Positions 1 to 17,032 of a stretch of DNA of 64,000 bases are shown here, piece after piece. Position 1 is the first letter of the stretch. Every line of letters begins with the position of its first letter. The position numbers were made by a program, and so were the translations under genes. The notes under the pieces were generated by a model. The model worked only from the letters and a program-made list of their open reading frames with translations. It was not told the DNA's origin and ran no database searches. The DNA comes from Botryllus schlosseri (lineage: Eukaryota): positions 558,001 to 622,000 of the forward strand of contig CM119371.1 in the NCBI GenBank assembly GCA_051294905.1. The letters run 5' to 3'.

Positions 1-88
1 AGAACCATCTTGAAATATGATTTGTGATTCAGTGCAATGCATTTATTGTGTGAATGTGAATGTTAATGTGATGTGTATGAAATTACAG

Positions 89-471
89 ATAACAGGCTTA
101 CAAACGATCGGAAAATCGTAAACACTAGATAGTGCTCGCATTGGGTTAATCTCAACGCAGTCAACTCGGTCTTTTCCACCTGGCCGTCGCCACGAGAGGA
201 TCTCGAATCTGCGCTCGTGAATATATTACCAATACACGTGTAAGTATACACTGATCTTATTCAATAGACCAAAGTTTGTGTTAACGCGATGTTTTCTTGC
301 TTCATCGAAACAGAGAAAGAGAAGAAGAATCAAGCCCAATCATCGAACTTATTGCATCGGTGAGTTCTCTGTTTTTTTACTACCTTAAGTTGGTGAACAT
401 AATTTTGAGGAAGGTTGTTTCTTTGTTTACCAGGTGAAAAAGAACTCAAGATTTCAAGGGAAAAAATATAA
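89..471 (+). other. Putative spliced upstream exons (about 89/133-239, 314-359, 434-471) of the Polinton early transcript
   Basis: Donors GTAAGT (240), GTGAGT (360), GTAAGT (472) and acceptors ending CAG at 313, 433, 540 define introns of 74, 74 and 69 nt. Confidence 0.6.
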
Positions 472-540
472 GTAAGTGTTACTATCTCGTTGATTATTAG
501 AATACAGAGTGTGAAATTGAAATCGAATTCAATGTTACAG

Positions 541-3500
541 ATGAGCCGTCGCAGAAGACACCGTATCCGTGAGAAAGCTGAATTTCCACCAGATATTGGT
601 GATGAACGTCAAGAAATTTTAACACAGAACTGGCAAGCCATAAAATCGTATGTAGCAAACATAGGCAGATCTCGAGTGGTGTACAATATTCGGATTATAA
701 ATCGTCAACTCTCAGCTGTTCGCGAGGACATCGAAGCGATATTCTTCTCTGAATCGTGTAGATTTAAAGTCAACTATTCATCTGGCTGTATTCTATACCA
801 CACCGAGACTCTAAGATATCGTTATTTTCATGCATCGTCAAATATCGATCGTGTTCTGGATATGCCATTGGCTATTTCATCATTGATACAGTTTGAAAAA
901 TTTGTAGAATCCATTAGATTGGAAACTGCATTTGATGTATTGCGTAAAGCCCGACCAGATACTAAATCACAGCCTGTTTGTCTAACAAATATACAGTTTT
1001 ACGTATTCCCTAGCGATAGGTTATTGATAGGGTGTACTGATGTTAATCTTCCTCTGTGGCTTACAAAATCGAAATGTGTCATGACACTACTTCATGATAA
1101 AAATCGTAATCGGTATAACGATAATCTGTGTGTATTTCGTTGCATTGGCCACTCGCTCGATCGTGATGCGAAATCATTGGCTGAACAGTATACCCAGGTT
1201 TATGGTGTGAACGTTGTTGGTTGTGTAACTTTTGAAATGTTACCTGACATCGAAAGATTGTTTGATGTAGCGATATCTATCTATCGTAAGACCGATGGTA
1301 AAGCTATTGCTGTCCGACGTAGTACTTATGTAGCCACTCCTGTTTATTTACACCTCGAAAATTCTCATGCTTGCTTGATAACTCAGATCAATCGATACCT
1401 CGAAAGCTATCATTGTGAATCTTGTGGAAAATTTTTCGATCTTGCAACTCATCTGACCAGGCACAACTGCATCACTGAACCTGTCGAGATATTTCCCGGC
1501 GGGATATATAGACCACCTTTGACGGTATTTGAACGAATGGAGATTGAAGGCATAATTGTCCCAAATCATTTACGTTTTTTCAAATATCGGATTGCCTTCG
1601 ATATCGAGAGTATGTTTCAACAATGTGATTTTGATCCCTCAGCTAAAACGACTTACGAGTGGAAGCATATTCCAATTTCCGTTAGTATATCATCAAATGT
1701 AGACGGGTATTTGGAACCACAGGTAATTGTTTCTAATGGTGATCCAATTCAGTTGTGTGAAGAGATGGTAGAGATTTTTCATACAATTCAGAGTCGATCC
1801 TTAAGTCTGTTGCTAGTTGAATACCGTCAATATCTGGATTTGTTTGAATCTAAAATCACAGAGATGAAAGTATTAGACCCCTCGGACAAGCCTTTACCAT
1901 TGGAACGTTTACAAGATGAATTCATGTGCTATCTAAGGCGAATACCAGTTATATCTTTTAATGGTGACAGATACGACTTGAACTGTCTTAAGGTATACTT
2001 GCTGCGTTTTTTCGTTGATGAAAACTTGAATGTTTTGAAGCGTGGTAACACATTTCTCTCGCTAACTACGAACAGGCTTCGTTTCCTCGATATCGTCAAT
2101 TACTTGGCACCTGGTTTTTCTTATGAAAAATATCTGAAAGCGTTCAAATGTAGTGGTGCAAAGGGTCATTTTCCATATGAATTTCTGACTAGTATTGAAC
2201 TGTTAGATTACCCTATGCTCCCGAATCATCAGTCATTTTATAGCTCGATAAAACGTTGTAATATATCGAAAGCTGATTATGAAAACAGCCTCAAGGTTTG
2301 GAATGATCATAATATGACATCGCTTCGTGACTATCTAAAATGGTACAATGCAATTGACACTCGCTACTTCATTGAAGGGTTAGAAAAGCAATTCGACTCT
2401 TTCAAGTCTCAATTTAATGTGGATATATTTAAAGAAGCTGTCTCGCTGCCGGGTGTTGTTTCGAGGCATATATTCAATTCCATTCCAAGGTGCTTCACCT
2501 TGTTCAGTGAAAAGCATAAAGACCTAGCTTTACTTTTTCGTGAAAATCTTGTCGGTGGCCCGTCAATCATCTTTAATCGGTATCAAAAAAGGGGGGAAAC
2601 TCGCATAAAACAACTTTTCTATGGTAAAGACGCAGAAATAACGCAGTATATAAGAGGGATGGACTGCAATTCGATGTACCTCCGAGCAATTTCGCTTGCG
2701 TCACCAGCAGGCTATCCCATTCATTGGAAAAGCCTTGATAACGAGTGTTCTAAATTTAAACCGGTCAAGACTGCTCCTACCTTTGGCCATAAAGCGCATG
2801 AATGGATACAGTACTATTCTCATGTTCATGGTGTACATGTCCACCATGCTTTCAACGGGTCAGAAGTAAGGATAGGCTCCAAGGGGTACCCTGCAGATGC
2901 ATTCTACCGTGACTCATCGGGTCGAGGCGTTGTGTTATCGTTTCTGGGGTGTTTCTTCCATTCTCACAGTAAATGCCGCTTTGCATATGACGACCCCGTG
3001 CGTCGAGAGCGAACAGAACGTGTACATTCATATTACAGAAGCCTAGGGCATCGTGTTATCACGATGTGGGAATGTCATTGGGATATCTCTAAACGTGAAA
3101 ACTCCGAAATCGCTCAATTTATAAACAGTGTTCGACCTCGATTGATTCGCAACAAGTCACTAACAGCTCATAAGTTGATTGAAATGGTGTTAGATGGAAC
3201 GTTCTTTGGGGCTTTACTGGTTGATATTTACACTCCTTCCCATTTGAAAAGATATTTTTCTGAACTGTGTCCAATATTCAAAAACACCCTTGTCTCTCGT
3301 AACGACCTGAAAGGCCACATGAAGCAATTTGCTATTGATCACAACCTATTACCAGCAGCTACACGTATGTTGGTTGCATCGTACTATGGCCAGAGAATTC
3401 TTTTGTCATCGACATTGATAAAATGGTATATAGAACATGGTCTAATTGTTTCACGGATATACGAGGCAATCGAATTTACAAAATCAACTTGTTTTGAAGG

Positions 3501-4393
3501 GTTCGCAAAAACTGTCTCTGACGCGAGACGGCTAGGTGACCGGGATCCGGACAAGGAAATTATTGCTTTGACTCATAAGCTTTCTGGTAATGTGATATAT
3601 GGGAAGATGATAATGAACCCCCTCAAATTTAAACGAACCAGTTTTTGTGATAAAAGTCAATTGCGGAGAAATGTCAATGATCCGTTTTTTGTGAATGTAG
3701 AAGACTTGACCTCTAATTTATACGAAGTAACCAAAAGGCCTAAAAAAAATAAAATGGAATACTTGCATTCACGTCGGATGGTTCGTTTATCAAAACGCGA
3801 AACAGCAATTGCTATCGTTTTTTTACGACTGTCTCTGTACGTACTTTGACGACAGGAAATGGGTAATGGCAATGTGTGACACGGACTCGATCTACATCGG
3901 GCATTCAGCTTCTTTCGATGATATGCTAATCCCAGAAAAAAGATCTGAATTTCATCTGAATTACGAAAAATGGTTCCCACGCTATTTTTGTGACGAACAT
4001 AGAAATGAGTTCCTGTCCAACCCAACCTCATTCGATAGAACGAGGCAATGCTGTAAAGATGTCTATGCATACTTTCTACAGCAACCTGGTTTGTTCAAGG
4101 TCGAATACGAGGACGGTACTGCATTTTGTGGTCTCCAATCAAAAAATTACTTTTGCGATGGTCCAAAACAAAAGTATGCCTCGAAAGGTCTTCAGAAATC
4201 TGGTCAAGTAAATTTTGAAACATTCCTTGAAGTATTGACATCTCAAAAACCTATGGGAGGTCATAATAGAGGGTTCAGAGTTCATAATAACGGTATTTAC
4301 ACGTACCAGCAGCATCGCGATACCTTGTCTTATTTTTACGCCAAGCGTCATGTTCTGGACGATGGCGTCACCACTATTCCCTTGAATCTGTAA
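541..4393 (+). pseudogene. pPolB: Protein-primed family B DNA polymerase (pPolB), one frameshift at the A8 run 3742-3749
   Basis: Exonuclease motifs AFDIES, FNGDRYD, YNAID; polymerase motifs DCNSMY, KLSGNVIYGK, CDTDS (3875-3889), KNY. Removing one A at 3742-3749 joins ORF 490..3849 to ORF 3809..4393 through KIKWNTCIHVGWFVYQNAKQQLLSFFYD. First ATG is at 541. Confidence 0.95.
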
Positions 4394-4445
4394 TGTGTAA
4401 TTGCTTTTGTATATTTCTGATCATGTTTTTTCTTGTTTTTCACAG

Positions 4446-4961
4446 ATGAATATTGCAAGTTCTTTCATCAAATCTGTTTTAATAGAGTTAGATTTGGATA
4501 CTTTGCATAAGCAAACCATTGGCTTGGAACAGGATTTAACGCAACACTCTATTGTCGGGACCCAGGACGAGCCACTCACCGGTACGATATCCGACCGTCA
4601 TTACAGAGAGCGCCTGAATCAGCTCGAACAAAGATGGAACTCTATTCGTGAAATATGCATGGAAGCACTACTACAACTCCGATTCCCAGACATTTTCAAT
4701 CGAGCCAAGCTGACGAATTATGTCGTTTTGGGTAAAACCAGGACTTGGATTCCACTTTTCGATTGGGAGGAAAAAAGAGCCAACTTCAAGAATTGTATGC
4801 GTGGGCGTTCCTTGCAGCTCTTTCTCGACCAGCATCGTGCCGCCAACTCTAAAAAACGATCTCATTCAGACTCGGAAAGCAGTGATGCTGGAACACAACC
4901 TTCTGAGTTGAGAAATGATGGCTTCCCCGATAACTATAACTGTGCCGATCCCAATTTGTGA
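4446..4961 (+). CDS. Polinton hypothetical protein A (helical, about 171 aa, basic/acidic low-complexity tail)
   Basis: Open frame from ATG 4446, preceded by a polypyrimidine tract and CACAG; similar to the spliced product of 5080..5543. Confidence 0.75.
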   Translation: MNIASSFIKSVLIELDLDTLHKQTIGLEQDLTQHSIVGTQDEPLTGTISDRHYRERLNQLEQRWNSIREICMEALLQLRFPDIFNRAKLTNYVVLGKTRTWIPLFDWEEKRANFKNCMRGRSLQLFLDQHRAANSKKRSHSDSESSDAGTQPSELRNDGFPDNYNCADPNL

Positions 4962-5079
4962 TATTTTGCTGTTTAGTGATAATGCTTATCAATTTTAGGT
5001 GTTCAAATGTAATATCTAACCGGGTTAAAGACCAGTTTTGTGCTCGGATGGTTTAATGTATTTGTGTTTTGTTTTACAG

Positions 5080-5538
5080 ATGGCTACTAACTACTTAAAA
5101 TCTATACTACAACATTCCAAACTGGATCAACTACGTGACAAGACACTGTGCCGTTATCACGATCGCATTCAAGTCGTCGACATGTATTTGAGACATGATA
5201 TATCGAATGAATTCTACAATCGATGCGTTTCAAGACAACGCGAGGATTTAGAACAATGCTCCCATGGTGAGATAGCATGTATGATTTTGTGTTCTCATGC
5301 TAGACATTTTCACAAATAACTTTCCGACACAACTCTAATATCATTTCATATCTAGACTGGGAACAACTGCTGGACGATCTTCAAAAAGCCTTCGTGACCT
5401 TGCAACTACCCTTGACGAAATTACAAACCAGTGATGAGGACTTTGTCACACGCGGCAAACTGCTGAATCGAACTTTGCTGGGACTATACATCCCACTTGA
5501 AGATGAATACAACAGTGGATTCTCCCAGTCCGCGGACT

Positions 5539-5543
<5 letters not shown>
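5080..5543 (+). CDS. Polinton hypothetical protein B, two exons (5080-5266, 5356-5543), paralog of protein A
   Basis: Intron GTGAGA (5267) ... CTCTAAT branch-like site ... TCTAG (5355). Splicing gives an open frame ...EQCSHDWEQLLDDLQKAFVTLQLP...FVTRGKLLNRTLLGLYIPLEDEY...TGA, which aligns with protein A. Confidence 0.72.

Positions 5544-5572
<29 letters not shown>
5543..5572. repeat. (AT)n microsatellite inside the Polinton, about 15 units
   Basis: Direct observation; followed by AATAAA at 5598-5603. Confidence 0.95.
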
Positions 5573-5577
<5 letters not shown>

Positions 5578-5610
5578 CATTCGTTTTTCGAGTTTTGAAT
5601 AAACAGCAAC

Positions 5611-6219
5611 ATGGAATTCAAGCATCCTTTCTCATTCATCCCATCCGGACCATCTCGTAGTGGTAAAACTACTTTCATCACTAAACTGATCAAGAATGCA
5701 GCCTCAATGATCAAACCTAATATTTCTAGAATCGTGTACTGCTATAATAATTATCAGAGTATTTTTGAGACCATGCCCCAGGTTGAATTTTACAATGGAT
5801 TGGAGATTTTGGAAGATCTTAAATCAAGTAACGAGGATGTATTGATAATAGTAGACGATTTTATGACTCAGACAGAAAAATTGGTAGAATATTTTATACG
5901 TATATCGCATCATAACCGAAAGTCAATAATATTCTGCACACAAAACTTTCATCATCAGGGCAAAGGCGCTCGCGACCTCAGTCTATCAGCTATGTATGTC
6001 TGCCTGTTTAAAAATCCCAGAGATCAGAACCAAATATCTGTCTTGGGGCGTCAGATGTACCCAAAGTCCAAGTTTCTAACAGAATGTTATAGAGACGCTG
6101 TCAAGAGACCTCATTCGTATTTGTGCCTCGATCTCACACAAGAGTGCCCCGATGATAGACGGGTCATGACCAATATATTTCCAGGCGAAACATTGACTAT
6201 TTACACTCAACCGGTATAA
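5611..6219 (+). CDS. A32/FtsK-like genome packaging ATPase
   Basis: Walker A GPSRSGKT, Walker B LIIVDD, ISHH and CTQN motifs, LFKNPRD; 202 aa intact. Confidence 0.95.
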   Translation: MEFKHPFSFIPSGPSRSGKTTFITKLIKNAASMIKPNISRIVYCYNNYQSIFETMPQVEFYNGLEILEDLKSSNEDVLIIVDDFMTQTEKLVEYFIRISHHNRKSIIFCTQNFHHQGKGARDLSLSAMYVCLFKNPRDQNQISVLGRQMYPKSKFLTECYRDAVKRPHSYLCLDLTQECPDDRRVMTNIFPGETLTIYTQPV

Positions 6220-6226
6220 ATACCGG
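6211..6226 (+). promoter_or_regulatory. Candidate TATA box within a short palindrome (CCGGTA-TAAA-TACCGG)
   Basis: TATAAATA at 6215-6222 overlaps the ATPase stop codon, about 30 nt before the ATG at 6251. Confidence 0.45.
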
Positions 6227-6250
6227 GGTGTACGCTGTTCTGGTTTCAAA

Positions 6251-6598
6251 ATGACTCCGATTCCGCGCAGAACAAGAGACCATTTGCCAACATTAGCATT
6301 CTTGCATCAAGCTAAACCCGCGATACGCAAGGAGATTTTATCTGGGGCTAGTGAAGGTCTAATACGTTGTATTTGTGAGTGTGCGAAAAATTTATTACAC
6401 GGAAATATACCGCTATCAGCGTCCCAGAGAAAACGCTTGTGTTGCCATAGGAACATCTTGAGGAAGCTTACCAACAAAGACGTTTCATTGCGCCGTAAAA
6501 GGACTCTTGTGACTCAAAATGGTGGGATGTTTATGTCTCTAATATCAAGTATACTCCCAGTAGTTACAGGATTACTCGGGAATTTATTTAAGAAATGA
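6251..6598 (+). CDS. Conserved small basic Polinton protein with QxGG motif and amphipathic C-terminus (putative virion precursor protein)
   Basis: ICECAKNLLHGNIPL, basic LRKL/RRKR stretch, QNGG followed by MFMSLISSILPVVTGLLGNLF. Confidence 0.75.
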   Translation: MTPIPRRTRDHLPTLAFLHQAKPAIRKEILSGASEGLIRCICECAKNLLHGNIPLSASQRKRLCCHRNILRKLTNKDVSLRRKRTLVTQNGGMFMSLISSILPVVTGLLGNLFKK

Positions 6599-7002
6599 CA
6601 CATTTCAAGAAAATTTACGTCACGCCGAATCCACTCAACCATGTCGACATTCAAAAACTGAATTCAGACATCGATAAACGTATATACGAAATATTACAAA
6701 TGGATATTCCGCGGGGTAAAAAATTGGCGTTATATAACGACGCGTTGAATCGGTTCCAGAACAGACACGATGTTCTTAATCAACCCATGAAAATTGATGT
6801 ACCAAATCAACCTAACCTGTTTTCTAATGCTGAATTGGATGCGTTACGACACATGATAAAAATCAAACCTGAATCTTCAAAGATCCCCGTACCGAACCAG
6901 TCACCTGCTAGACCCAGAACTAAAATCCCTTCGCCCCATGTCACAACGAAAAGGGGGCGGTCTATCAAGACACCGGCGCGATTCAAATGGAACGTTTACT
7001 GA
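6595..7002 (+). CDS. Conserved Polinton hypothetical protein, 135 aa
   Basis: IDKRIYEIL...KLALYNDALNRF helical N-terminus and C-terminal KWNVY; ATGA overlap with the upstream gene; position just before the integrase. Confidence 0.65.
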   Translation: MTHFKKIYVTPNPLNHVDIQKLNSDIDKRIYEILQMDIPRGKKLALYNDALNRFQNRHDVLNQPMKIDVPNQPNLFSNAELDALRHMIKIKPESSKIPVPNQSPARPRTKIPSPHVTTKRGRSIKTPARFKWNVY

Positions 7003-8014
7003 ATATTTCGCTCCGGATCGACCTGGTAGCTATCGTGGAGCGTATGTGTTCGGCAGGGGGCGCAATAGAGCCGCGGTAAAAGACTTTCTTAGGCGACACG
7101 AGACCTATACCAGACATTTCCCTGTCCGACAAAAGTTTCAACGTCCAAAAGTAATTACATCAGGTTTAGGTGTCCAATATCAAGCTGACCTCATGCACAT
7201 GGAAAACCTAGCATCGGAAAATGATGGTTTCAAATACATATTATTGGTTGTGGACATATTCAGTAAAATTCTATATCTTTTCCCGCTTCGAGATAAATCT
7301 GCAAAGGGTGTTATTCGATGTTTCAAAGAAATCTTTACCCAAATTAAACCCCACATTATTCAGAGCGACCAGGGAACTGAGTTTACAAACCGCTCCTTCC
7401 AGAGTTTTTTAAAACAGAACGGTGTAAAACACTTTTTCACACATAGCGAATTGAAGGCATCTATAGCCGAGCGTGCCATCAGAAGTGTGAAGCAAACACT
7501 ATTCCGGTACTTTACACATAATAAAACGTTAAATTACGTCAATGTTTTATCGGAAATATGTCTAGGATTTAACTCAACTTACCATACGAGTTTAGGCCGC
7601 GCTCCGGTTGATGTTAATTTTTCAAATCAAGAAGATGTCTTTCATCGATTATACGGTGATACCACACCAAAGCAGCCAACACTATCCGTTGGTACCCCTG
7701 TGAGGATTTCAAAAACACGACAACGATTCGTAAAATCGGCATTGGCTGGTTGGAGCGAAGAAATATTTTTCATTTCGAAATGTTTTTCTGGGGACCCGAT
7801 TAGTTATCAACTGAAAGATTATGCAAACGAAAATGTATCCGGCCGCTTTCAACGCGAAGAAATTCAACCTGTGATTATTGATAATGACATTTTCAACGTC
7901 GAAAAGATTCTGTCTACACGTAAGAAGGCCGGGAAAACCGAGTATCTGGTCAAATGGTCTGGATACCCCGAAAAATTTAATTCGTGGGTTTCGGATTACT
8001 ATATAAAGCCCTGA
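6938..8014 (+). CDS. Retroviral-like (rve) DDE integrase with C-terminal chromodomain
   Basis: YQADL, VVDIFSK, QSDQGTEF, IAERAIRSVK; C-terminal FNVEKILSTRKKAGKTEYLVKWSGYPEKFNSWV chromodomain. Exact start uncertain. Confidence 0.96.
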   Translation: MSQRKGGGLSRHRRDSNGTFTEYFAPDRPGSYRGAYVFGRGRNRAAVKDFLRRHETYTRHFPVRQKFQRPKVITSGLGVQYQADLMHMENLASENDGFKYILLVVDIFSKILYLFPLRDKSAKGVIRCFKEIFTQIKPHIIQSDQGTEFTNRSFQSFLKQNGVKHFFTHSELKASIAERAIRSVKQTLFRYFTHNKTLNYVNVLSEICLGFNSTYHTSLGRAPVDVNFSNQEDVFHRLYGDTTPKQPTLSVGTPVRISKTRQRFVKSALAGWSEEIFFISKCFSGDPISYQLKDYANENVSGRFQREEIQPVIIDNDIFNVEKILSTRKKAGKTEYLVKWSGYPEKFNSWVSDYYIKP

Positions 8015-8037
8015 GTAATGTTTTTTATATTGTAAAT

Positions 8038-8253
8038 ATGGATTCCCAGTCCACGTCAAGCCGCGTTACTGAATTCAAACTTGAAATAAAAAATCAGTGT
8101 GTATTTGTCGTACAAATTTTTATGCTAGTCGGAATAATCATTTTTTCGTTATATCAAATTTCTGTGAAACCCGATCGCGAAATATATTTAACGCTGTTAT
8201 CGAGCTGTCTAGGATATTTACTCCCACAACCGTCTCCTCATCGTGTGCGCTGA
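8038..8253 (+). CDS. Small two-helix membrane protein of Polinton type (71 aa)
   Basis: Hydrophobic VFVVQIFMLVGIIIFSLY and YLTLLSSCLGYLLPQP; TATATAAA at about 8000-8007 upstream and AATAAA at 8260-8265 downstream. Confidence 0.7.
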   Translation: MDSQSTSSRVTEFKLEIKNQCVFVVQIFMLVGIIIFSLYQISVKPDREIYLTLLSSCLGYLLPQPSPHRVR

Positions 8254-8265
8254 AAATACAATAAA

Positions 8266-9099
8266 ATGCTGTTAACCTTACCATCCAATGCTAGTATGTC
8301 AATTTTTGAAAATACACCATCAAATTTTGAAACAGAACTCTACAGTGAACTAGAAATGCCATAACACCTTGTCGGTCTTTCTGAAATAAGTTTTGAAAAT
8401 AATTTTCAACCCCGGATTGAAGTGGCAAGAAATACTATGGGGTTCAGATTTGGTGATGAAAATTCAGGTGTCAAGCAATATTATATTCCAGAAGGATCTT
8501 ATCACAATGTCGCGGAAATGCTAGAATCTTTTGAAAAATACTACATGGGTGAAATATTCATCATTCAAGGATATGACGAGTTTAGAATCGCTTTTCGAAA
8601 TTTACCATCGCACAGAGTTAGACACACGCGAAGTATATCGACAAATAATAACATCGGGAGTATGGTTACAAGACCGAAAGACCTTAACACCGAGAAATCA
8701 ATAGAGACTTACGGATTGTCACCTATTGGCCCCGTGTTGAGTAAATTAGCTTTTAAGCGCGTATATGCCCCGCATTCCACTATGCCGATAGAATTCATAT
8801 TTTCCCCTGCCGTGAAATTAGACCCAATCGATCAAATTTATGTCTATTCTGATTTGATTCAGCCACGACCCCATGGTAATCAGTTACAACCACTCTTACG
8901 AGTCATCACAGTGACATGTGAACCAAATCAGAATCAAACTAGTGTCTTTCATAAACCATACTATTTTCAGTTGGCGAAAAACAAATTTCGCCGAATAAGA
9001 ATATATTTACATGATAAATTTGGTAATCCAATTAAATTTCAAAAAGGACCTGTCACTGTCAGTCTTTTATTCCGCCGAAAAGCTGTGGACTCGATATGA
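8266..9099 (+). pseudogene. Minor capsid (penton-like) protein 1, in-frame TAA at 8362-8364
   Basis: N-terminus MLLTLPSNASMSIFENTPSNF...*HLVGLSEISF is in frame with ORF 8422..9099, which has YVYSDLIQP...GNQLQPLLRVI and IRIYLHDKFGNPIKFQKGPVTVSLLFR. Confidence 0.85.
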
Positions 9100-9773
9100 C
9101 ATACGTCACAATTTCTGGAGATCACGCGGGATTCTCAGTCGACCTTACCAAGACTATCATTTGCAATGAAATCTCACTTATAGACATAAGCTTTAATGTT
9201 GAGTTAAACAATCAAATTATAATTGAACGTGATGAAAAAATTTGGGAGTATCGTAATTCACAACAATTACTAGATACATACCTTACCCCCATTGGAAATT
9301 ATGCTACCCCGAAACAGTTGATGGATAGGATTTTATCTGAAAGATTTCCGTATAATACTGTTTATAACATAGAGAAAATCAGTGGAGAACTATTCCGAAT
9401 TCTAACCCCGATACATATTACAATCCACCCCAACAGTATTCTAGAAAAATATTTCAATGTCACACGCGACCTAACATCACGGTTATGTAATTCCACATTA
9501 ATCAGGTGTAAACCGGTGCCCACTGAGATAAGATATCTTTTTGTTTATTGTGACTCAGTCAAGCATCGTCACTTGGGTGATTATATGAGTCAACTACTTC
9601 GCGTTATTCAAATCAAAACCACTCCACGTTACCGCGAAGAGATCATTTATGAGAAACCGATATATTTTCCAGTATCAACAAATCACATCCAGAATATAAA
9701 AATCTCCATTAGAGACCAATTCGGTCAGTTGATCCAGGGTATACACACTACGTTGACACTTCATTTACGATGA
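9096..9773 (+). CDS. Minor capsid (penton-like) protein 2
   Basis: ISLIDISF; FVYCDSVKHRHLGDYMSQLLRVI; PIYFPV...IKISIRDQFGQLI...LTLHLR. Confidence 0.82.
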   Translation: MTYVTISGDHAGFSVDLTKTIICNEISLIDISFNVELNNQIIIERDEKIWEYRNSQQLLDTYLTPIGNYATPKQLMDRILSERFPYNTVYNIEKISGELFRILTPIHITIHPNSILEKYFNVTRDLTSRLCNSTLIRCKPVPTEIRYLFVYCDSVKHRHLGDYMSQLLRVIQIKTTPRYREEIIYEKPIYFPVSTNHIQNIKISIRDQFGQLIQGIHTTLTLHLR

Positions 9774-10162
9774 TTTTAACGCTGACCCATTCTAGGAATG
9801 GTATAGGTTTCCAACACTGGCTGTCCACTGTTAACGAAATCTCTACGAGATACCGTGAGATAGCGCTTATGGAGATGAATATGACATTGACCAAACCTAT
9901 ACCAGGACGATATTTGTTTGTCTATTGTAATATTATCAATCCACGATTGGTCGGGGACACATTTGCTAATTTACTCCGTGTCATCCCGTTACAAAATAAC
10001 ACCATGTCACAAAATTGGATATCGACGAATCCATATCATTTTTCGATATCGCAAGATGTTATACACTCCGTTTGTATTTCATTGAGAAATGAATTTGGTG
10101 ACCCTATAAATATAGACAACCAATCATTGCAAGTCACATTTAACATTAGGAAGCAATTATGA
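9770..10162 (+). CDS. Minor capsid (penton-like) protein 3, minimal form lacking the central insertion
   Basis: EIALMEM followed almost at once by FVYCNIINPRLVGDTFANLLRVI; ISLRNEFGDPI...VTFNIR; 130 aa. Confidence 0.8.
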   Translation: MILTLTHSRNGIGFQHWLSTVNEISTRYREIALMEMNMTLTKPIPGRYLFVYCNIINPRLVGDTFANLLRVIPLQNNTMSQNWISTNPYHFSISQDVIHSVCISLRNEFGDPINIDNQSLQVTFNIRKQL

Positions 10163-10533
10163 AAGTTGCGTACACCTGCGACCATCACTCGGTATACAAC
10201 CATTATAATCAAACAGGGAATGGATTTGGATATTTCGCTGGTGGCCACCAAACAGGGTCTGGTATTGGTAGCTTGTTTAAAACTCTTGGTCGTTTCGTGA
10301 CCACTGTTGTGAAATACGCTGGCGGACAATTGTTACGTACCGGGGGTGAGATAGCCAGAGATCTTTTGAACGGACACTCCATCAAGTCCAGTGCCCTCAA
10401 AAGAAGTAAGCAAGCTGGGACTCGCGTTATTGATCGAATTTTGAAACCCAACAATGGTATAAAAAGAAAGAAAAATACTAAATCAAACATTTCTAAGAAG
10501 CGACGCCGCAAAGAGAAGGACATCTTCGATTAA
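10159..10533 (+). CDS. Basic core/membrane-lytic-like Polinton virion protein
   Basis: QTGNG and QTGSG motifs, amphipathic GIGSLFKTLGRF helix, Lys/Arg-rich C-terminus ending DIFD; lies directly before the major capsid gene. Confidence 0.75.
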   Translation: MKVAYTCDHHSVYNHYNQTGNGFGYFAGGHQTGSGIGSLFKTLGRFVTTVVKYAGGQLLRTGGEIARDLLNGHSIKSSALKRSKQAGTRVIDRILKPNNGIKRKKNTKSNISKKRRRKEKDIFD

Positions 10534-10534
10534 C

Positions 10535-11805
10535 ATGATGATGCATGAAGATTCCCACGAATGTCATAATAACGGATTAAATATATTTAGTGTTCCTCAT
10601 ACCCAAACCTCGATAGAGAATTCACAATATGTCATCGTTAAACCACACAGTCTGGGAAATGTAATGGAAATTTCATTACCTAAAACAGACAGATACATCG
10701 ACCTGCAAAACTCATTCTTACGATTATGCCTAAAGCTTACTAAACACGATGGAACAGATTTAGCAGATGCCGCGGAAGTAGCATTTGTCAACAATATATT
10801 AGATTCTCTTTTCAAACAAATTGATGTAACTATCGGAAATGAAGTAATCACCAATTCAGACAATTGCCACGCATACAAAGCGTATATCTATCGACTGTTG
10901 AATGACACACCCGCTGGATCCAACAGTTTTATTCGTGGCCAGGGCTTCCACAAAGACACCGCAAAATTTATGGATACTATAGGCGCTGAAAACACAGGGT
11001 ACGTAACGCGAAAAGGTCTTACGAAAAGTAGTAAAGCATTGGAGTTGATTGGTAAAATTAGAATGGGACTTTTCGAGCAATCAAGATGTATGCTGGATAA
11101 TGTCGATATGAAATTACGATTCACATGTAACGACGACAAATTCTGCCTTATTGGAACCACCGAAGACGTGAAAATTGTAATCACGGATATGGAACTATAT
11201 GTCAAACAAATGAAAATTACAGAGAGTGTCAGCTTAGCTCACAAATCGATATTACAGAAATCGAATGCTAAATATCCGTGGTCTCGTCTTCAAATGTCAA
11301 CTCATACATTCGCAGGGGGACTGACGAAGCTTGACCGCGAGTTAGTTAGCGGGACTTTGCCGAAAAAAATTGTAATTGGCTTGGTTGAAACCACAGCGTT
11401 TAACGGGGCTAGAAACAAAAACCCATTCAACTTTAAACATTATGACATTCAGAATATGTCATTGGCTGTTTGTGGCAATCAATTACGAGGTAGAGAATTC
11501 CATTTCAATTTCGAAAAATCGGGGGTTTAGAAGGTTATATGATGCTCTTTTCTGAGACAGGGAGGTGGGAAGGTGAGGCACCTTTAAATATATCACCTAC
11601 CGACTATATGAATGGTTATACTCTGTTCGTGTTTGATTTGACCCCAGATAATAGCTTAGGGTGTTACCAACTACACAAAACCGGAACCGTACACCTGGTT
11701 TTGACAACCTCCAAACCACTACCAACGTCTGTGACATTGCTGTGCTTAAAAGAGTACCAACACCTCTTACAACTGAACCAGAAAAGACAGGTCGTGGAAA
11801 TATGA
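10535..11805 (+). pseudogene. Major capsid protein (double jelly-roll), one frameshift near the G5 run 11521-11525
   Basis: LNIFSVPHTQTSI, VNNILDSLFKQIDV, AFNGARNKNPFNFKHYD, GYTLFVFDLTPD. Adding one G joins 10535..11530 to 11539..11805 as FEKSGGLEGYMMLFSETG. Confidence 0.93.
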
Positions 11806-12248
11806 ACACGGATGAGATTAATAATATTCTCTTCAATCATCCTGACACGAAAAATCTATTCATAGGGACTTATGCTGTGGATCAGCTACCGAAAAAACCA
11901 AAATACCAGAAATTTGCTGTTGTCATCAATTACGACGAACCAACGTTACCAGGTTCTCATTGGGTGTGTGTATATAGCGATAACTCCACTCATTTTCATG
12001 ATTCACTTGGTTTCCCACCCCTAAAACCTCAGATAGTCGAGTTTCTAGGTTCAGAGGACTTCACCGTTACCAGGCAACAGCTTCAAAGTAAAAAATCTGA
12101 TATGTGTGCTGATCATTGTATTTCATATTTGATTAAAAGAGCTCAAGGTTTTTCAACTGAACAGTATCTGAATTATTTTGGTGATAAAAAATATGAGAAT
12201 GATAAAATTGTTCGCTTTTTCGTAAAGAGCTTGATTACAGGTGGATAA
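11802..12248 (+). CDS. Adenain-like cysteine protease (capsid maturation), 148 aa
   Basis: FIGTYAVDQLP, NYDEPTLPGSHWV (His), HDSLG (Asp), LQSKKSDMC (Gln, Cys); starts at an ATGA overlap with the capsid stop. Confidence 0.93.
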   Translation: MNTDEINNILFNHPDTKNLFIGTYAVDQLPKKPKYQKFAVVINYDEPTLPGSHWVCVYSDNSTHFHDSLGFPPLKPQIVEFLGSEDFTVTRQQLQSKKSDMCADHCISYLIKRAQGFSTEQYLNYFGDKKYENDKIVRFFVKSLITGG

Positions 12249-12252
12249 TAAA
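12247..12252 (+). terminator. Polyadenylation signal AATAAA after the last Polinton gene
   Basis: AATAAA overlaps the protease stop codon. Confidence 0.55.
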
Positions 12253-12270
12253 CACATTCAATGTATACAT

Positions 12271-12577
12271 CCGTGATTCGTGATATACTTAACACAGTGA
12301 GTCAGTTTTGCGCTGAGCGTTGACGGGAAGCAATTCGCGTAGTGATTCAGTCGACAGGATACCATAGTCATTTGTCTCCGCAGAATATGTAGGTCACTTC
12401 GCATTAAAACACCTGTTTTCAAAATCGATCGCGGGAAGCGCACAATGACGCTTTTTCGAAGCTCCATAGGCCGATTTTCGACCACTAGCTAGCTCAAAAT
12501 GCACCGTTTCTGACTTCCGAAATGCAACATTCTTGTTTCCGGTATTTTACGAATCACGGGACCACAATATAACTACT
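12271..12577. repeat. Probable right terminal inverted repeat of the Polinton (inner boundary uncertain)
   Basis: Non-coding, CpG-rich segment after the last gene, ending CACAATATAACTACT. The partner TIR is outside the window. Confidence 0.65.
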
Positions 12578-13440: not shown

Positions 13441-13776
13441 TGTGGAAACCAGAGGTTTCCAGAATGCTTTGTATTTGCCATTTGGAAATTGCGTTGGACA
13501 TGGTATGGCTGGAGACCGCGTATTGACTTAGTTGAGTGAGGCAGTTTGGCTGAGTTCGTGACTGGAGATGGATGCGAGTGACTATGTCTCTATGTTTGGT
13601 AGCGTGAAGCATAAGTAGTTGGGAGCAGTAGCGTGAAGTAGAGGCTGTATAAGGCAGCTAGGGCGAGAAGTAGTAGGTAGTTGGTCTTGTATTTGCAGGC
13701 TTGAGTTGGACGTACCGATCGGAATCTCTGCTGGGGCACGGCCTAGTCACTCACGGTGCTACGCGAGCACCTAGGG

Positions 13777-15236
13777 CAAGGGTCGGCAACCTACGGCCCG
13801 CGGGCCGGATCCGGCCTGCCAAGCGAAATCGTCCGGCCTGCGAGATAATAATTAGTTATCACAAGACTACGGCCCGCCGTTTCACAATGCTTTTCAGTAG
13901 AAGTAGAGTAGAATAGATCAGTGCTTATCAATCTGGTATATCTCGCAACCGAAAATTTACCATACTTTTTAGCGAGTTTACCGATCGGGTTTGACAATAA
14001 AAGTGTCCTTCCTCTGCTTCAAAAACGCTTGGAACATCTCAGACGCAATGACAAAATCTCAAACTTACACTGTTTAATTATAGATAACTAGCCTCCGTAG
14101 ATTAGTTATCCATAATTTAATTCCCAAAAGGCATAGTGCGCCAAGACAACAAACCTGAAGTGTTTTGGCCACAATGATGAACACTGTTAATATGATTTTG
14201 TCTCAAAAACTGAATCACCAACATTGTTACGCCAAATATTACTAGAAGCATAGAGTCAATATGGCGATGTAATGTATATCTGCCCTGTTCGTGCATTAAG
14301 TCGAGAAGCTATACTTGCACTAGTCTATGAACTGAGAAATGGAATAGCAGCTTTCCTCGAAAATACGAATATCGCCGACTCATAATCTTATAATCGAAAA
14401 TGGGTAACTAATCTTGCTCTCCTGGTACATTTAACGTCTCATCTGAACAAAGTGAATTTCCAACTTCGAGGGGACAACGACTGAATACATGAGATGTTAA
14501 GGCACATTCGAAACAAATCTGCGTCTCGGAGAATTTCAACAGTACAAAGAAAATTATGCTCACTTTCTTATACTGGAGAGAAAACCTAGTAACAATGCTA
14601 TATTTGTAACTGTGATACGAAATTTAATTACTGAATATTCACCAGCTTTACCGACATTCCTTCAATACAAAATAAATTCTGAATATTCAGTACTCCATTT
14701 AATGTGGACGCCAATAGCAATGCCTGAAAATTTCAAATGGGCATTTTTGAAATGCGATGCAGTTGGTTGAATGAAAAATTTCATACAAAGGGCATATCGC
14801 TGCATGACTTTGATAAAGAGTACGTTCTTGAAATTTATCTTTATCCCAGCTTGTCCAACAATGCAAAAGACATTGGCATCGATTTTTGGTAGCACGTACG
14901 CATGTGAGCAAGAGTTTTGAACAATAAAATTCACGAAGAGCAAGCTAAGATCACGTATTTTGGACGCCCATTTAGAATATGGTCTGATTCTTGCTTCATT
15001 TGACTTGTTGTCAGAAGTTGAAAACCTTTCACAAAGCAAGCTGCGTCAATTGTCACATTTATTCTGCGTTGTTGAAGTGTAAATACATGTGTTTTGTGAT
15101 TGGTAGGGTTGAGATTGCAGCAATGTAGGATAATATACCGAAGTAAGCGTAAAATATTGTATTAAGAAGAATTCCGACCCACCCAGTTGCATACTCGAAA
15201 TTTGGCCCGTGACTAGCAAAAGGTTGCCGATCCCTG
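13777..15236 (+). mobile_element. Decayed hAT (Buster/SPIN-like) DNA transposon with transposase remnants
   Basis: TIRs CAAGGGTCGGCAACC / GGTTGCCGATCCCTG; TSD ACCTAGGG/ACCTAAGG; remnants WVTNLALLVHLTSHLNKVNFQLRG (from 14401) and LASIFGSTYACEQEF*TIKFTKSKLRSRILDAHL (about 14873-14975). Confidence 0.88.
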
Positions 15237-15683
15237 ACCTAAGGAGTGATGTTGCCCCTATGGTAGTTCCTACTCGCTTGTAGATGGCAAGGCTGCTGCT
15301 GGGATAGGTTCATGCTGATAAGTATGTGTGCGTGCTGCGTGGGTTTAGCGTGGAGTGTCGTTACAGTTTGCTGTACAGTGCATGTGTCGAATATAGGTGT
15401 TGTAGATCGTCTGGGGTTCCGTTATATGTGTCCTCGAGCATCGCTATTATGAGATTCTTGTGTCGTATGAATATAATATTATTACCGCATACATTTGTGG
15501 TGTTGTCAGTGTCAGTCTCCGTCGTGTATTATGTAAGTGTTGTTCGAGCAGGCGGCAGTCGCAAAGAGACGAGGTCACAAGCCCAGTAACACACCTTCGT
15601 TCCCGTTATTGTTACGGGGTCGCTACGGGGCCGTTACGGGGTCGCTACACTAGGCTCATGTACGCCATATCATCCGCCTAAGC

Positions 15684-17032
15684 CAGTGGTTCTCAACCTT
15701 TTTTGACTCGCGCCCCCCTTGGAGATGGTCAAAAAAATCGCGCCCCCCCTGACCCCCCTTGCATTTATCGTCATGTCAAAAAGAGCACATCATCTAATAC
15801 AGAGTTGGGCAACGTTTTTGATAATCATGGCCGCATTTCGATTACTTATGTACGGGGTAGCGTAAGGCCGCATTCCAGGGCATATAGCCGCAATGAACGA
15901 TCTGGACACAAAATTCCTATGGTAAACTGTCCATATCCATTCCCGGTGAACTCCGGACTATTCTACTTTTCACAATGGCCTATTGTACGCAACGAAATCG
16001 CGAGTGGCAATGTTATGAATAGTTGCCGGGAGGTGCATATTGTCGCGCGGAGCGCGAAAGTTTTTCAGGGCTGCGAACGAATTGTTATTTCTTGCCAATT
16101 CCCATTCCGGCTCTGATTAAGACGGGCGCTACTGCATTAAAATCAAAAAATGAAGTCTTGTTGAATTGCGCGGAGGGCGAAGAAAATTTCAAGATTAATT
16201 AAAATCTCTCGAAAATGCGGGAGTGAATTCGTAATTGCAATTTGCATGTCTACGGCCGCCAACATATAGCCTACTAATTGAATTAGGCGTCGAACGCCCG
16301 CTCAAATTCCCTTCTACGGCCGCAGGCTGCCCACCCCTGATCCAATAGTATACATAAGGTATATCTTACGCCAATTTTGAATCGGCATTCCAGTTGTTGA
16401 GTCTTTTACATGACAAATTTCTCCAAACTTGTTTGAAAATAACAAAAAACATTGAACAAGACATCCATTAATTAATTTCAAGGTAGGTCACCCTGAGACT
16501 AATCCTGATGCTGGTCGTGAGTACAGAGCGCAAGGCGTCGTTCTGTCCTGCCAGGCTAAATTTGATCAGTTTTGGAAATTGTGTTGATTTATAGCCTAAT
16601 TGAGGGCGAAACCGGGCAACCTATGTTGCATCTAATTCTGTCTTAGGCAGTGCAGTTCGCAAGCTACTAACAAGAGCTGCCCAGCTCGCCAAGCTTTAGG
16701 CTACTGTCAAAGCTATCAAGCAATGAATGACTTACACGTGGGAATTGCTCTCTATATCTCCAAAGAATTTCAAAAATTTGCTCAAATCAAGTTGAAATCA
16801 GACTATACTCCGTTGAGCGCGGTTGCTAGAGTTTGTATTTTGCAAGCTTTCTTGAATATGTAATAAATTTCATCTTCATTAATCGTCTTCTCATAATGGA
16901 TGTGAAACACATGTTCGGACACGTACAATTTATACTGACTTTGTCAATTTCTCGCGCCCCCCTATAGTGACTTCGTCAATTTCTCGCGCCCCCCCTGAGA
17001 CTCTTCCGCGCCCCCCAGGTTGAGAACCCCTG
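15684..17032. mobile_element. Non-autonomous hAT element
   Basis: TIRs CAGTGGTTCTCAACC / GGTTGAGAACCCCTG; perfect 8-bp TSD GCCTAAGC; related inverted copy at 39929-41412. Confidence 0.9.

Follow-up and report, generated by a model that had tools for sequence, protein, structure and literature searches.

A 64,000-nucleotide (nt) stretch of the Botryllus schlosseri genome (NCBI GenBank assembly GCA_051294905.1, contig CM119371.1, positions 558,001 to 622,000 of the forward strand), referred to here as the window and numbered from its first letter, with negative positions lying upstream of it, begins inside a Polinton/Maverick element of approximately 15.4 kb that spans window positions -2783 to 12576. 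The present analysis concerns the plus-strand block in the left arm of this element, which consists of an upstream open reading frame (ORF), the gene of the protein-primed DNA polymerase B (pPolB) and two small genes, termed gene 2 and gene 3, and it follows up an earlier note made from the sequence of the window. Polintons are usually annotated as bare ORF arrays, and how some dozen genes packed closely together in a Polinton/Maverick element are expressed in the nucleus of a eukaryote is, to our knowledge, poorly understood. The warning of the earlier note that an ORF-array annotation would miss a regulatory layer stands.

Dozens of copies of the element's family are present in the host genome, for which the genome-wide searches covered the 495-Mb assembly in 219 contigs. 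Copies were compared without building a consensus, in 20 rows made up of the window and 19 copies that are 74-98% identical over window positions 1-700, and a second family (family B) was included that is 67-69% identical over gene 3 and whose pPolB leader could be aligned only in blocks. Domains were identified with Pfam, using the family cut-offs. The features of the block are as follows, with SL standing for spliced leader and aa for amino acids.

-860 to 27 (1 to 27 in the window), plus strand: upstream ORF of 295 aa with a TGA stop, the first gene of the plus-strand block
28 to 88, plus strand: spacer ending in the acceptor-like AATTACAG (83 to 88), with no read coverage
89 to 239, plus strand: predicted pPolB leader exon 1, non-coding, no ATG
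240 to 313, plus strand: predicted leader intron 1, 74 nt, GTAAGT to CAG, with GT and AG in 20/20 rows and without read evidence
314 to 359, plus strand: predicted leader exon 2, no ATG
360 to 433, plus strand: leader intron 2, 74 nt, GTGAGT to CAG, with GT and AG in 20/20 rows, spliced in RNA
434 to 471, plus strand: predicted leader exon 3, no ATG, ending in a TAA that is in frame with the pPolB ATG after splicing
472 to 540, plus strand: predicted leader intron 3, 69 nt, GTAAGT to ACAG, its acceptor abutting the pPolB ATG, kept in 20/20 rows and without read evidence
541 to 4393, plus strand: pPolB gene (PF03175, E 3.8e-6, 26.5 bits versus a cut-off of 25.8)
4394 to 4445, plus strand: T-rich spacer of 52 nt with the SL trans-splice acceptor CACAG at its end
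4446 to 4961, plus strand: gene 2, a small protein, 171 aa in the window copy
4962 to 5079, plus strand: spacer of 118 nt with TTTTGTTTTACAG as SL trans-splice acceptor at its end
5080 to 5266, plus strand: gene 3 exon 1
5267 to 5355, plus strand: gene 3 intron, 89 nt, GTGAG to TAG, removed in RNA
5356 to 5543, plus strand: gene 3 exon 2 with a TGA stop
5598 to 5603, plus strand: AATAAA, the sole AATAAA or ATTAAA in 3900-5700, kept in both families

Three consecutive genes of the block start directly at an acceptor-type signal, with ACAG placed immediately before the ATG (boundary shown by a slash) at 541 (TGTTACAG/ATG, pPolB), 4446 (TTTTTCACAG/ATG, gene 2) and 5080 (TTTTGTTTTACAG/ATG, gene 3). 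On the plus strand, ACAGATG occurs three times in positions 1-12576, all at these gene starts, and four times in the whole 64 kb. Upstream of pPolB, donors at 240 (GTAAGT), 360 (GTGAGT) and 472 (GTAAGT) are followed by CAG acceptors ending at 313, 433 and 540. Three of the five GTRAGT sites in 1-12576 fall within 27-540, an enrichment reached with P = 0.007 (at least three sites; mean 0.45) in 5000 first-order shuffles. The earlier note had reported both the three ACAG/ATG gene starts and the three upstream donors with introns of 74, 74 and 69 nt, and its coordinates were found to be exact. For the ATPase gene that follows gene 3, a CAG placed 4 nt before the ATG at 5611 (AACAG CAAC ATG) was considered as a further acceptor and rejected, as it is not kept in family B, which has AACAACAAATGATG at this place.

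RNA was studied in three raw RNA-seq runs carrying the same species label (X20, X23 and X24), together with a contig run that is only guessed to be RNA (X1), all aligned to a locus sequence, L052, in which the coordinate equals the window position plus 2000. At the acceptor of gene 3, 288 X24 reads run upstream at L052 7078 (window 5078, the A of the acceptor's AG) into a sequence foreign to the locus, ..ACATGGG GATTGGAGTATTTGGTTGTATTA. The ACATGGG preceding the leader is presumably the end of a template-switch oligo, in which case the leader would sit at the capped 5' end of the mRNA. The same leader is found at the acceptor of gene 2, at L052 6444 (window 4444), in 4 X20 reads and 4 X23 reads, where we take the sequence directly before it to be the Illumina adapter. 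The loose ends stop 2 nt short of the ATG because the leader itself ends in AG, and the true joint is thus leader/ATG. At both genes the leader is therefore joined at the AG acceptor, in sibling copies that are 90-99% like the window, and for genes 2 and 3 the attachment of the host SL precisely at the start codon is thus shown, so that their 5' untranslated region (UTR) is the SL alone.

The intron of gene 3 is removed in the same material, in 288 X24 reads with the joint L052 7265>7355 (cut +1, GT..AG), and, in a variant copy type (7261>7354, with GCA between), in 147 X24 reads, 2 X23 reads and 1 X1 contig; the spliced coding sequence has 375 nt and encodes 124 aa. This internal intron, as well as the upstream ORF ending at 27, had been overlooked in the earlier note. 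No intron-less DNA copy was found among 13 full-length DNA matches, none of which is reduced in length by the gene 3 intron, and the spliced reads and the X1 contig thus point to RNA and not to a DNA copy without the intron. In X24, 1942 of the 2645 aligned reads are 90-95% like the window, so the expressed copies are siblings of the window copy. Separately, at L052 7095 (window 5095), 32 X24 reads continue upstream into an unrelated ..CCAACCTGAGCTGTCTAGGG at a place with no AG acceptor, and this loose end may represent a diverged copy or a chimeric transcript.

The leader does not come from the element. The 25-nt sequence has no match with up to 4 mismatches in window positions -10000 to 20000, while exact matches to its 19-mer are scattered over the genome at 372 sites (183 + 189), as compared to 0 for the reversed control, and the full 25-mer followed by GT is found at 39 genome sites. 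The leader in the reads is identical to the 25-nt 'Chordata 1' SL, GATTGGAGTATTTGGTTGTATTAAG, of Table 1 in PMC3795323, and the text of that article gives 'Chordata 1' as common to all seven chordate species of its set. Among chordates, SL trans-splicing is known in tunicates according to the excerpted text of PMC7986045 and PMC1488885. A leader that is foreign to the element, dispersed in the genome and identical to 'Chordata 1' identifies 4446 and 5080 as SL trans-splice sites and, as judged from this leader, the host as a tunicate-type animal. Trans-splicing had been the alternative reading of the earlier note, and it is borne out by reads at these two of the three acceptors. Outside the element, the SL is encoded as an exon followed by a GT donor at the 39 candidate sites, which are putative SL RNA genes. 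In 12 sampled 19-mer sites (examples L053-L064), the sequence past the leader varies, and several share CTGGACC..GGTC approximately 70-90 nt downstream. The dispersed 19-mer sites may correspond to variants of the SL RNA gene, to pseudogenes or to SL-bearing RNAs that were retro-copied.

The earlier note had proposed following the GT and AG sites across other copies and related elements, and they are kept. All six leader GT/AG dinucleotides are present in 20/20 rows, with intron lengths of 71-75, 67-74 and 63-70 nt. Among the close rows, AG precedes the ATG of gene 2 in 13/13 and that of gene 3 in 12/13 (L022 has CG), and the GT and AG of the gene 3 intron are kept in 13/13 close rows and 12/12 family B rows. 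In family B, a T-rich CAG/ATG is found at gene 3 in 12/12 copies and at gene 2 (TTTTCCAG/ATG) in 10/10 located copies, with gene 2 not located in 2 of the 12 copies, and AG/ATG is found at pPolB in 10/10 copies. The pPolB leader of this family contains four short introns (58-67 nt), whose donors are GTAAGT or GTGAGT except for one GTTAGT among the 40. A genome-wide census of the two bases before the gene-start ATG, with a reversed pattern as control, gave AG in 80/81 matches for pPolB (control 4), 31/35 for gene 3 (control 2) and 14/18 for gene 2 (control 4), the four non-AG matches of the latter looking unrelated.

Ahead of pPolB, intron 360-433 was seen spliced, with the joint L052 2358>2433 (cut +1, GT..AG, skipping 74 nt) in 1 X24 read and 1 X1 contig. 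Among the junctions that the earlier note had suggested looking for, this one (359^434) was thus recovered, and 239^314 and 471^541 were without read support. The leader exons of the window contain 0 ATG in 235 nt, versus 6 in the 61 nt upstream (28-88), and the four of family B contain 0 ATG in 2724 nt, versus 76 in 2495 nt of introns (10 non-independent copies). A 5' UTR that is scanned requires a spliced leader without ATGs. The three upstream introns are probably real, one based on the read and the contig and the other two on conservation and ATG-free exons, and pPolB is most likely served by its own cis-spliced multipartite leader, of which one intron was observed and the others are deduced. 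At the upstream side, AATTACAG/AT is kept in 20/20 rows and family B has TTTCCGTTTCAG/AT at the corresponding place; going by these letters, positions 83-88 are a candidate 5' boundary of the pPolB leader and may be an SL acceptor 61 nt past the stop of the upstream ORF. Within leader exon 1 (125-200), comparison with a family B copy (L065) shows short blocks that are kept (CACTAG.TGGTGCT, TAATCTC..CAG, GGTC.TTTC) in otherwise diverged sequence, and these blocks may represent a regulatory element or the actual region in which transcription starts.

Whether the block is transcribed as one unit was addressed with RNA depth, spacing and signals for polyadenylation. The depth in X24 is approximately 0 over the body of pPolB, approximately 3 over its last 330 nt, 29-54 over gene 2 and approximately 300-340 over gene 3, and it drops from approximately 290 to 0 past window position 5682. 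The AATAAA at 5598 likely serves as poly(A) signal for the gene 3 mRNA, and perhaps for the block as a whole. As further observations from this area, a (TA)n run of variable length among copies lies at 5543-5573, between the gene 3 stop and the AATAAA, and RNA depth is approximately 0 over 5683-8000 in the three raw runs. As in an SL-resolved operon, the genes share one orientation with spacers of 52 and 118 nt. One X1 contig covers window positions 4157-6255, crossing both acceptors with the gene 3 intron removed. The short spacers, the sole poly(A) signal at 5598, the monotonic rise in depth and the X1 contig are the grounds on which the block is probably read through as one polycistronic pre-mRNA.

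Taken together, we consider it likely that genes 2 and 3 take the SL at their starts, that pPolB has its own cis leader and that the block is probably one pre-mRNA. Under this reading, the plus-strand block, comprising the upstream ORF, pPolB, gene 2 and gene 3, would be adapted to host mRNA processing in two ways. As the reads show, genes 2 and 3 start exactly at a 3' splice site (T-rich tract, CAG/ATG) to which the host 25-nt SL is trans-spliced, and their mature mRNAs therefore read cap-SL..AAG/AUG, with the SL alone as 5' UTR and supplying the A at -3. For pPolB, cis-splicing of 240-313, 360-433 and 472-540 would join three short ATG-free exons, the last acceptor abutting the ATG, and the element's own leader would not be common to the three genes. 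The choice of acceptor on a single pre-mRNA would then decide which ORF comes first on the mRNA.

Several points weigh against this reading. With regard to the reads, about 6-13% of each raw run was read, joints were listed at a minimum of 3 reads and leader counts are those among the loose ends listed, and the reads that bear the SL or are spliced stem from siblings of the window copy, which has a broken pPolB frame and is not itself demonstrated as their source. With regard to the SL RNA gene, 4 loci gave no Rfam match at E values of up to 1, SL plus GT with CTTTGG within 35 nt of the donor was found at only 2 genome sites, and the fold of one candidate SL RNA was no better than shuffles (z -1.03). 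In the case of pPolB, the gene is nearly silent, with a depth of approximately 0 over its body in X20, X23 and X24, leader splicing was seen in one read and one contig for one intron, with introns 1 and 3 lacking read support, and no joins at 540/541 or 88/89 were shown among the listed reads. The leader introns are also slightly more conserved than the exons between subfamilies (0.76-0.82 versus 0.59-0.74), and sequence conservation alone does therefore not mark the leader exons. Finally, the X1 contig that crosses the genes is no proof of a single transcript, and separate promoters would fit the 10- to 100-fold steps in depth as well.

These depth steps, from the 3' end of pPolB to gene 2 and on to gene 3 in X24, support the most probable of the competing explanations, according to which genes 2 and 3 are separate units, each with its own promoter and a short outron replaced by the SL, without a polycistronic precursor, and the shared orientation and short spacers reflect viral compactness only. 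Such an arrangement would also agree with at least one other element gene having TATAAAA approximately 45 nt before its ATG, and with the tunicate SL serving monocistronic genes too, as stated in excerpts of PMC1488885 and PMC7986045. However, the 52- and 118-nt spacers have no TATA-like motif by eye, the window copy has no AATAAA or ATTAAA between the cistrons, a depth that rises monotonically to one 3' end fits nested read-through mRNAs and one X1 contig bridges both acceptors, and we regard separate units as unlikely, though still a serious contender. The boldest reading, in which the left arm is one unit with a single poly(A) site past gene 3 and 3'-coterminal nested mRNAs, the SL being added alternatively at the successive start-codon acceptors and pPolB keeping its own cis leader, is put forward here only tentatively, with slightly more confidence than the separate units.

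Under another explanation, the SL-bearing RNAs of genes 2 and 3 stem from a few domesticated or captured fragments driven by host genes, and the design would then say little about intact elements. The strong expression in one of the three raw runs (X24) and the many sites at which the reads differ from the window would agree with this, but at least two copy types are expressed (CCCATG/, 288 reads; CGCAAG/, 147 reads), and two families of 67-80% identity, with dozens of copies, retain AG/ATG at each of the three genes. Conservation of AG/ATG in two families is the pattern expected if it serves the element, and the captured-fragment explanation appears improbable.

The leading idea of the earlier note was a shared cis leader as in adenoviruses, with one promoter and with the donor at 472 joined alternatively to 541, 4446 or 5080; it is considered here with the donors at 240 and 360 as further options, so that all three genes would carry the element's own leader. 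In its favour, pPolB is indeed preceded by a multipartite leader without ATGs, each of the three gene starts is an acceptor, and the low depth of the leader (at most approximately 2 in window positions 5-672) could hide rare cis events. However, the four runs gave, at the listing threshold of 3 reads, no joint that connects 471, 359 or 239 with 4446 or 5080, the host SL is found instead at 5080 (288 reads) and at 4446 (4 + 4 reads), and the attached leader is absent from the element. The idea is accordingly not supported, and as an account of the block it is very improbable. That the AG/ATG and GT..AG signals are coincidental and the 'introns' ordinary intergenic sequence, as short motifs are frequent in AT-rich sequence, has next to no probability left and was already refuted by the splicing and SL addition seen directly in the reads, in addition to 3/3 ACAGATG in 12.6 kb lying at gene starts, the shuffle result for the donors and the conservation of the sites between families.

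The remaining parts of the element support its identification. Its left end, which had been overlooked in the earlier note, lies 2783 bases upstream of the window, whose start falls inside the element. The terminal inverted repeats (TIRs) and the two further genes with recognised domains are as follows.

-2783 to -2294: left TIR, from self-BLAST
12268 to 12576, no strand: right TIR, from self-BLAST, 98.8% identical to the left one over 259 nt
5611 to 6219, plus strand: A32-like packaging ATPase (PF04665, 23.8 bits versus a cut-off of 22.8)
6938 to 8014, plus strand: integrase with rve core and chromodomain (PF00665, E 1e-14; PF00385, E 9.8e-10)

The termini of the element are GTAGTTATATTG, and an 8-bp direct repeat, TATAGTCT, resembling a target-site duplication, is present on both flanks; the duplication thus looks like 8 bp, versus 6 bp in canonical Polintons. 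The element carries the pPolB, rve integrase, A32-like ATPase, long TIRs and target-site duplication of a Polinton/Maverick, and Pfam recognised four hallmark domains in it (pPolB, A32-like ATPase, rve and chromodomain). Canonical Polinton/Maverick elements, said to go back to Kapitonov and Jurka in 2006 and Pritham and colleagues in 2007, reportedly feature TIRs, pPolB, rve integrase and A32-like ATPase; unlike these, the integrase here has a chromodomain and the left-arm genes have introns as well as acceptors at their ATGs.

The window copy is decayed. Its pPolB frame is broken near 3809-3866, giving ORFs at 532-3849 and 3809-4393; an intron was considered at this place and rejected, as the last 547 codons are open in one single frame in 6/12 other copies. 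The capsid-like ORF is also split, into 10535-11530 and 11539-11805; for a double jelly-roll capsid protein, Pfam gave a Capsid_N match at E 0.054 only, below the cut-off. Gene 2 encodes 180 aa in 10/12 other copies, and the gene 2 of the window copy has 27 nt fewer at 4687 than the X1 contig, matching the 180-aa version elsewhere. No Pfam match and no usable Atlas match was obtained for the gene 2 family, and paralogy of gene 2 and gene 3 exon 1 found no support in BLASTP (E 1.8). The upstream ORF and two minus-strand ORFs further left had no Pfam family at or above the cut-off, and no protease family in Pfam matched ORF 11802-12248, where an adenain-like protease was sought.

A number of observations were additionally made on other parts of the element and its surroundings. 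In the right arm, ORFs at window positions 6595, 9096, 9770 and 10159 overlap by ATGA and their starts are without an acceptor. Left of the window, a minus-strand ORF has TATAAAA approximately 45 nt before its ATG, and a 110-aa minus-strand ORF ends at a short-intron-like sequence of approximately 58 nt, GTATGC...TTTACAG (L051 8540-8610, minus strand, window approximately -1460 to -1390), with TTTTTACAG and TTGTCAG located 12-25 nt before its ATG. The whole Polinton and its flanks are bracketed by an inverted repeat of 1335 bp with 99.8% identity (L051:201-1535, window -9799 to -8465, and 15683-17017), and a second repeat pair of 313 bp (97.8%) is found at window positions -8210 to -7898 and -3282 to -2970; these pairs may represent another transposon present in two copies, or else a larger composite. 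Directly right of the Polinton, a 21-nt inverted repeat pair (13772-13792 and 15221-15241, 1428 nt apart) probably represents the ends of a small DNA transposon.

The adenovirus major-late tripartite leader consists of several short non-coding exons that are cis-spliced onto a coding body, and Polintons and adenoviruses share pPolB, protease and capsid types. The pPolB leader described here, a multipartite non-coding leader assembled by cis-splicing, resembles the adenovirus leader in form. Unlike in adenoviruses, it is, as far as seen, joined to pPolB only, and the other two acceptors take host RNA in trans; one element leader serving several alternative acceptors was not found among the listed joints, the SL occurring instead. 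As to the SL side, the excerpted text of PMC1488885 and PMC7986045 describes tunicate operons (Ciona, Oikopleura) in which, like here, one SL is attached at AG acceptors, being common to monocistronic genes and to the downstream genes of operons, and genes lie in one orientation and up to approximately 100 nt apart. In comparison to these operons, the recipient here is a virus-like transposon and not a host gene, and in two diverged families all three genes have their AUG directly behind the acceptor. Most Ciona operons are without spacer in these excerpts, versus 52 and 118 nt here, where the polycistronic precursor is one that we infer.

Host trans-splicing is also used by transposon mRNAs in Hydra, where, in the excerpted text of a preprint (bioRxiv 10.1101/2024.03.13.584568), approximately 30% of the Iso-Seq reads of transposable elements (TEs) carry an SL. 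That statement is general over TE families, with CR1 and Tc1 as examples and Maverick just listed as active, and the same excerpts hold no acceptor-at-ATG design or multi-gene element. A preprint on C. elegans eri-6/7 deals with trans-splicing between exons of the host, for which Polinton TIRs act as mediators, and not with Polinton genes that receive an SL, and in PMC5240408 'maverick' appears in a figure legend only. No report of SL trans-splicing of Polinton/Maverick genes was found in the literature searched, whose coverage left most subscription journals outside. What operates at 4446 and 5080 is the usual SL trans-splicing of tunicates; the novelty lies in the recipient and the design.

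The element family described here is fitted to a host with SL trans-splicing, as acceptors placed at the start codons make the host leader the whole 5' UTR, and it adds a further case of mobile elements exploiting host trans-splicing. For annotation in SL hosts, the finding translates into a rule, namely to seek YAG/ATG at gene starts together with short introns in the UTR. The dataset further offers a testable model for gene dosage in Polintons. If the nested set of mRNAs is true, acceptor choice, and not promoter choice, would set the ratio of the polymerase to the two small proteins, and the family would be running a virus-style nested-mRNA programme on host trans-splicing that is kept across families at 67-80% identity.

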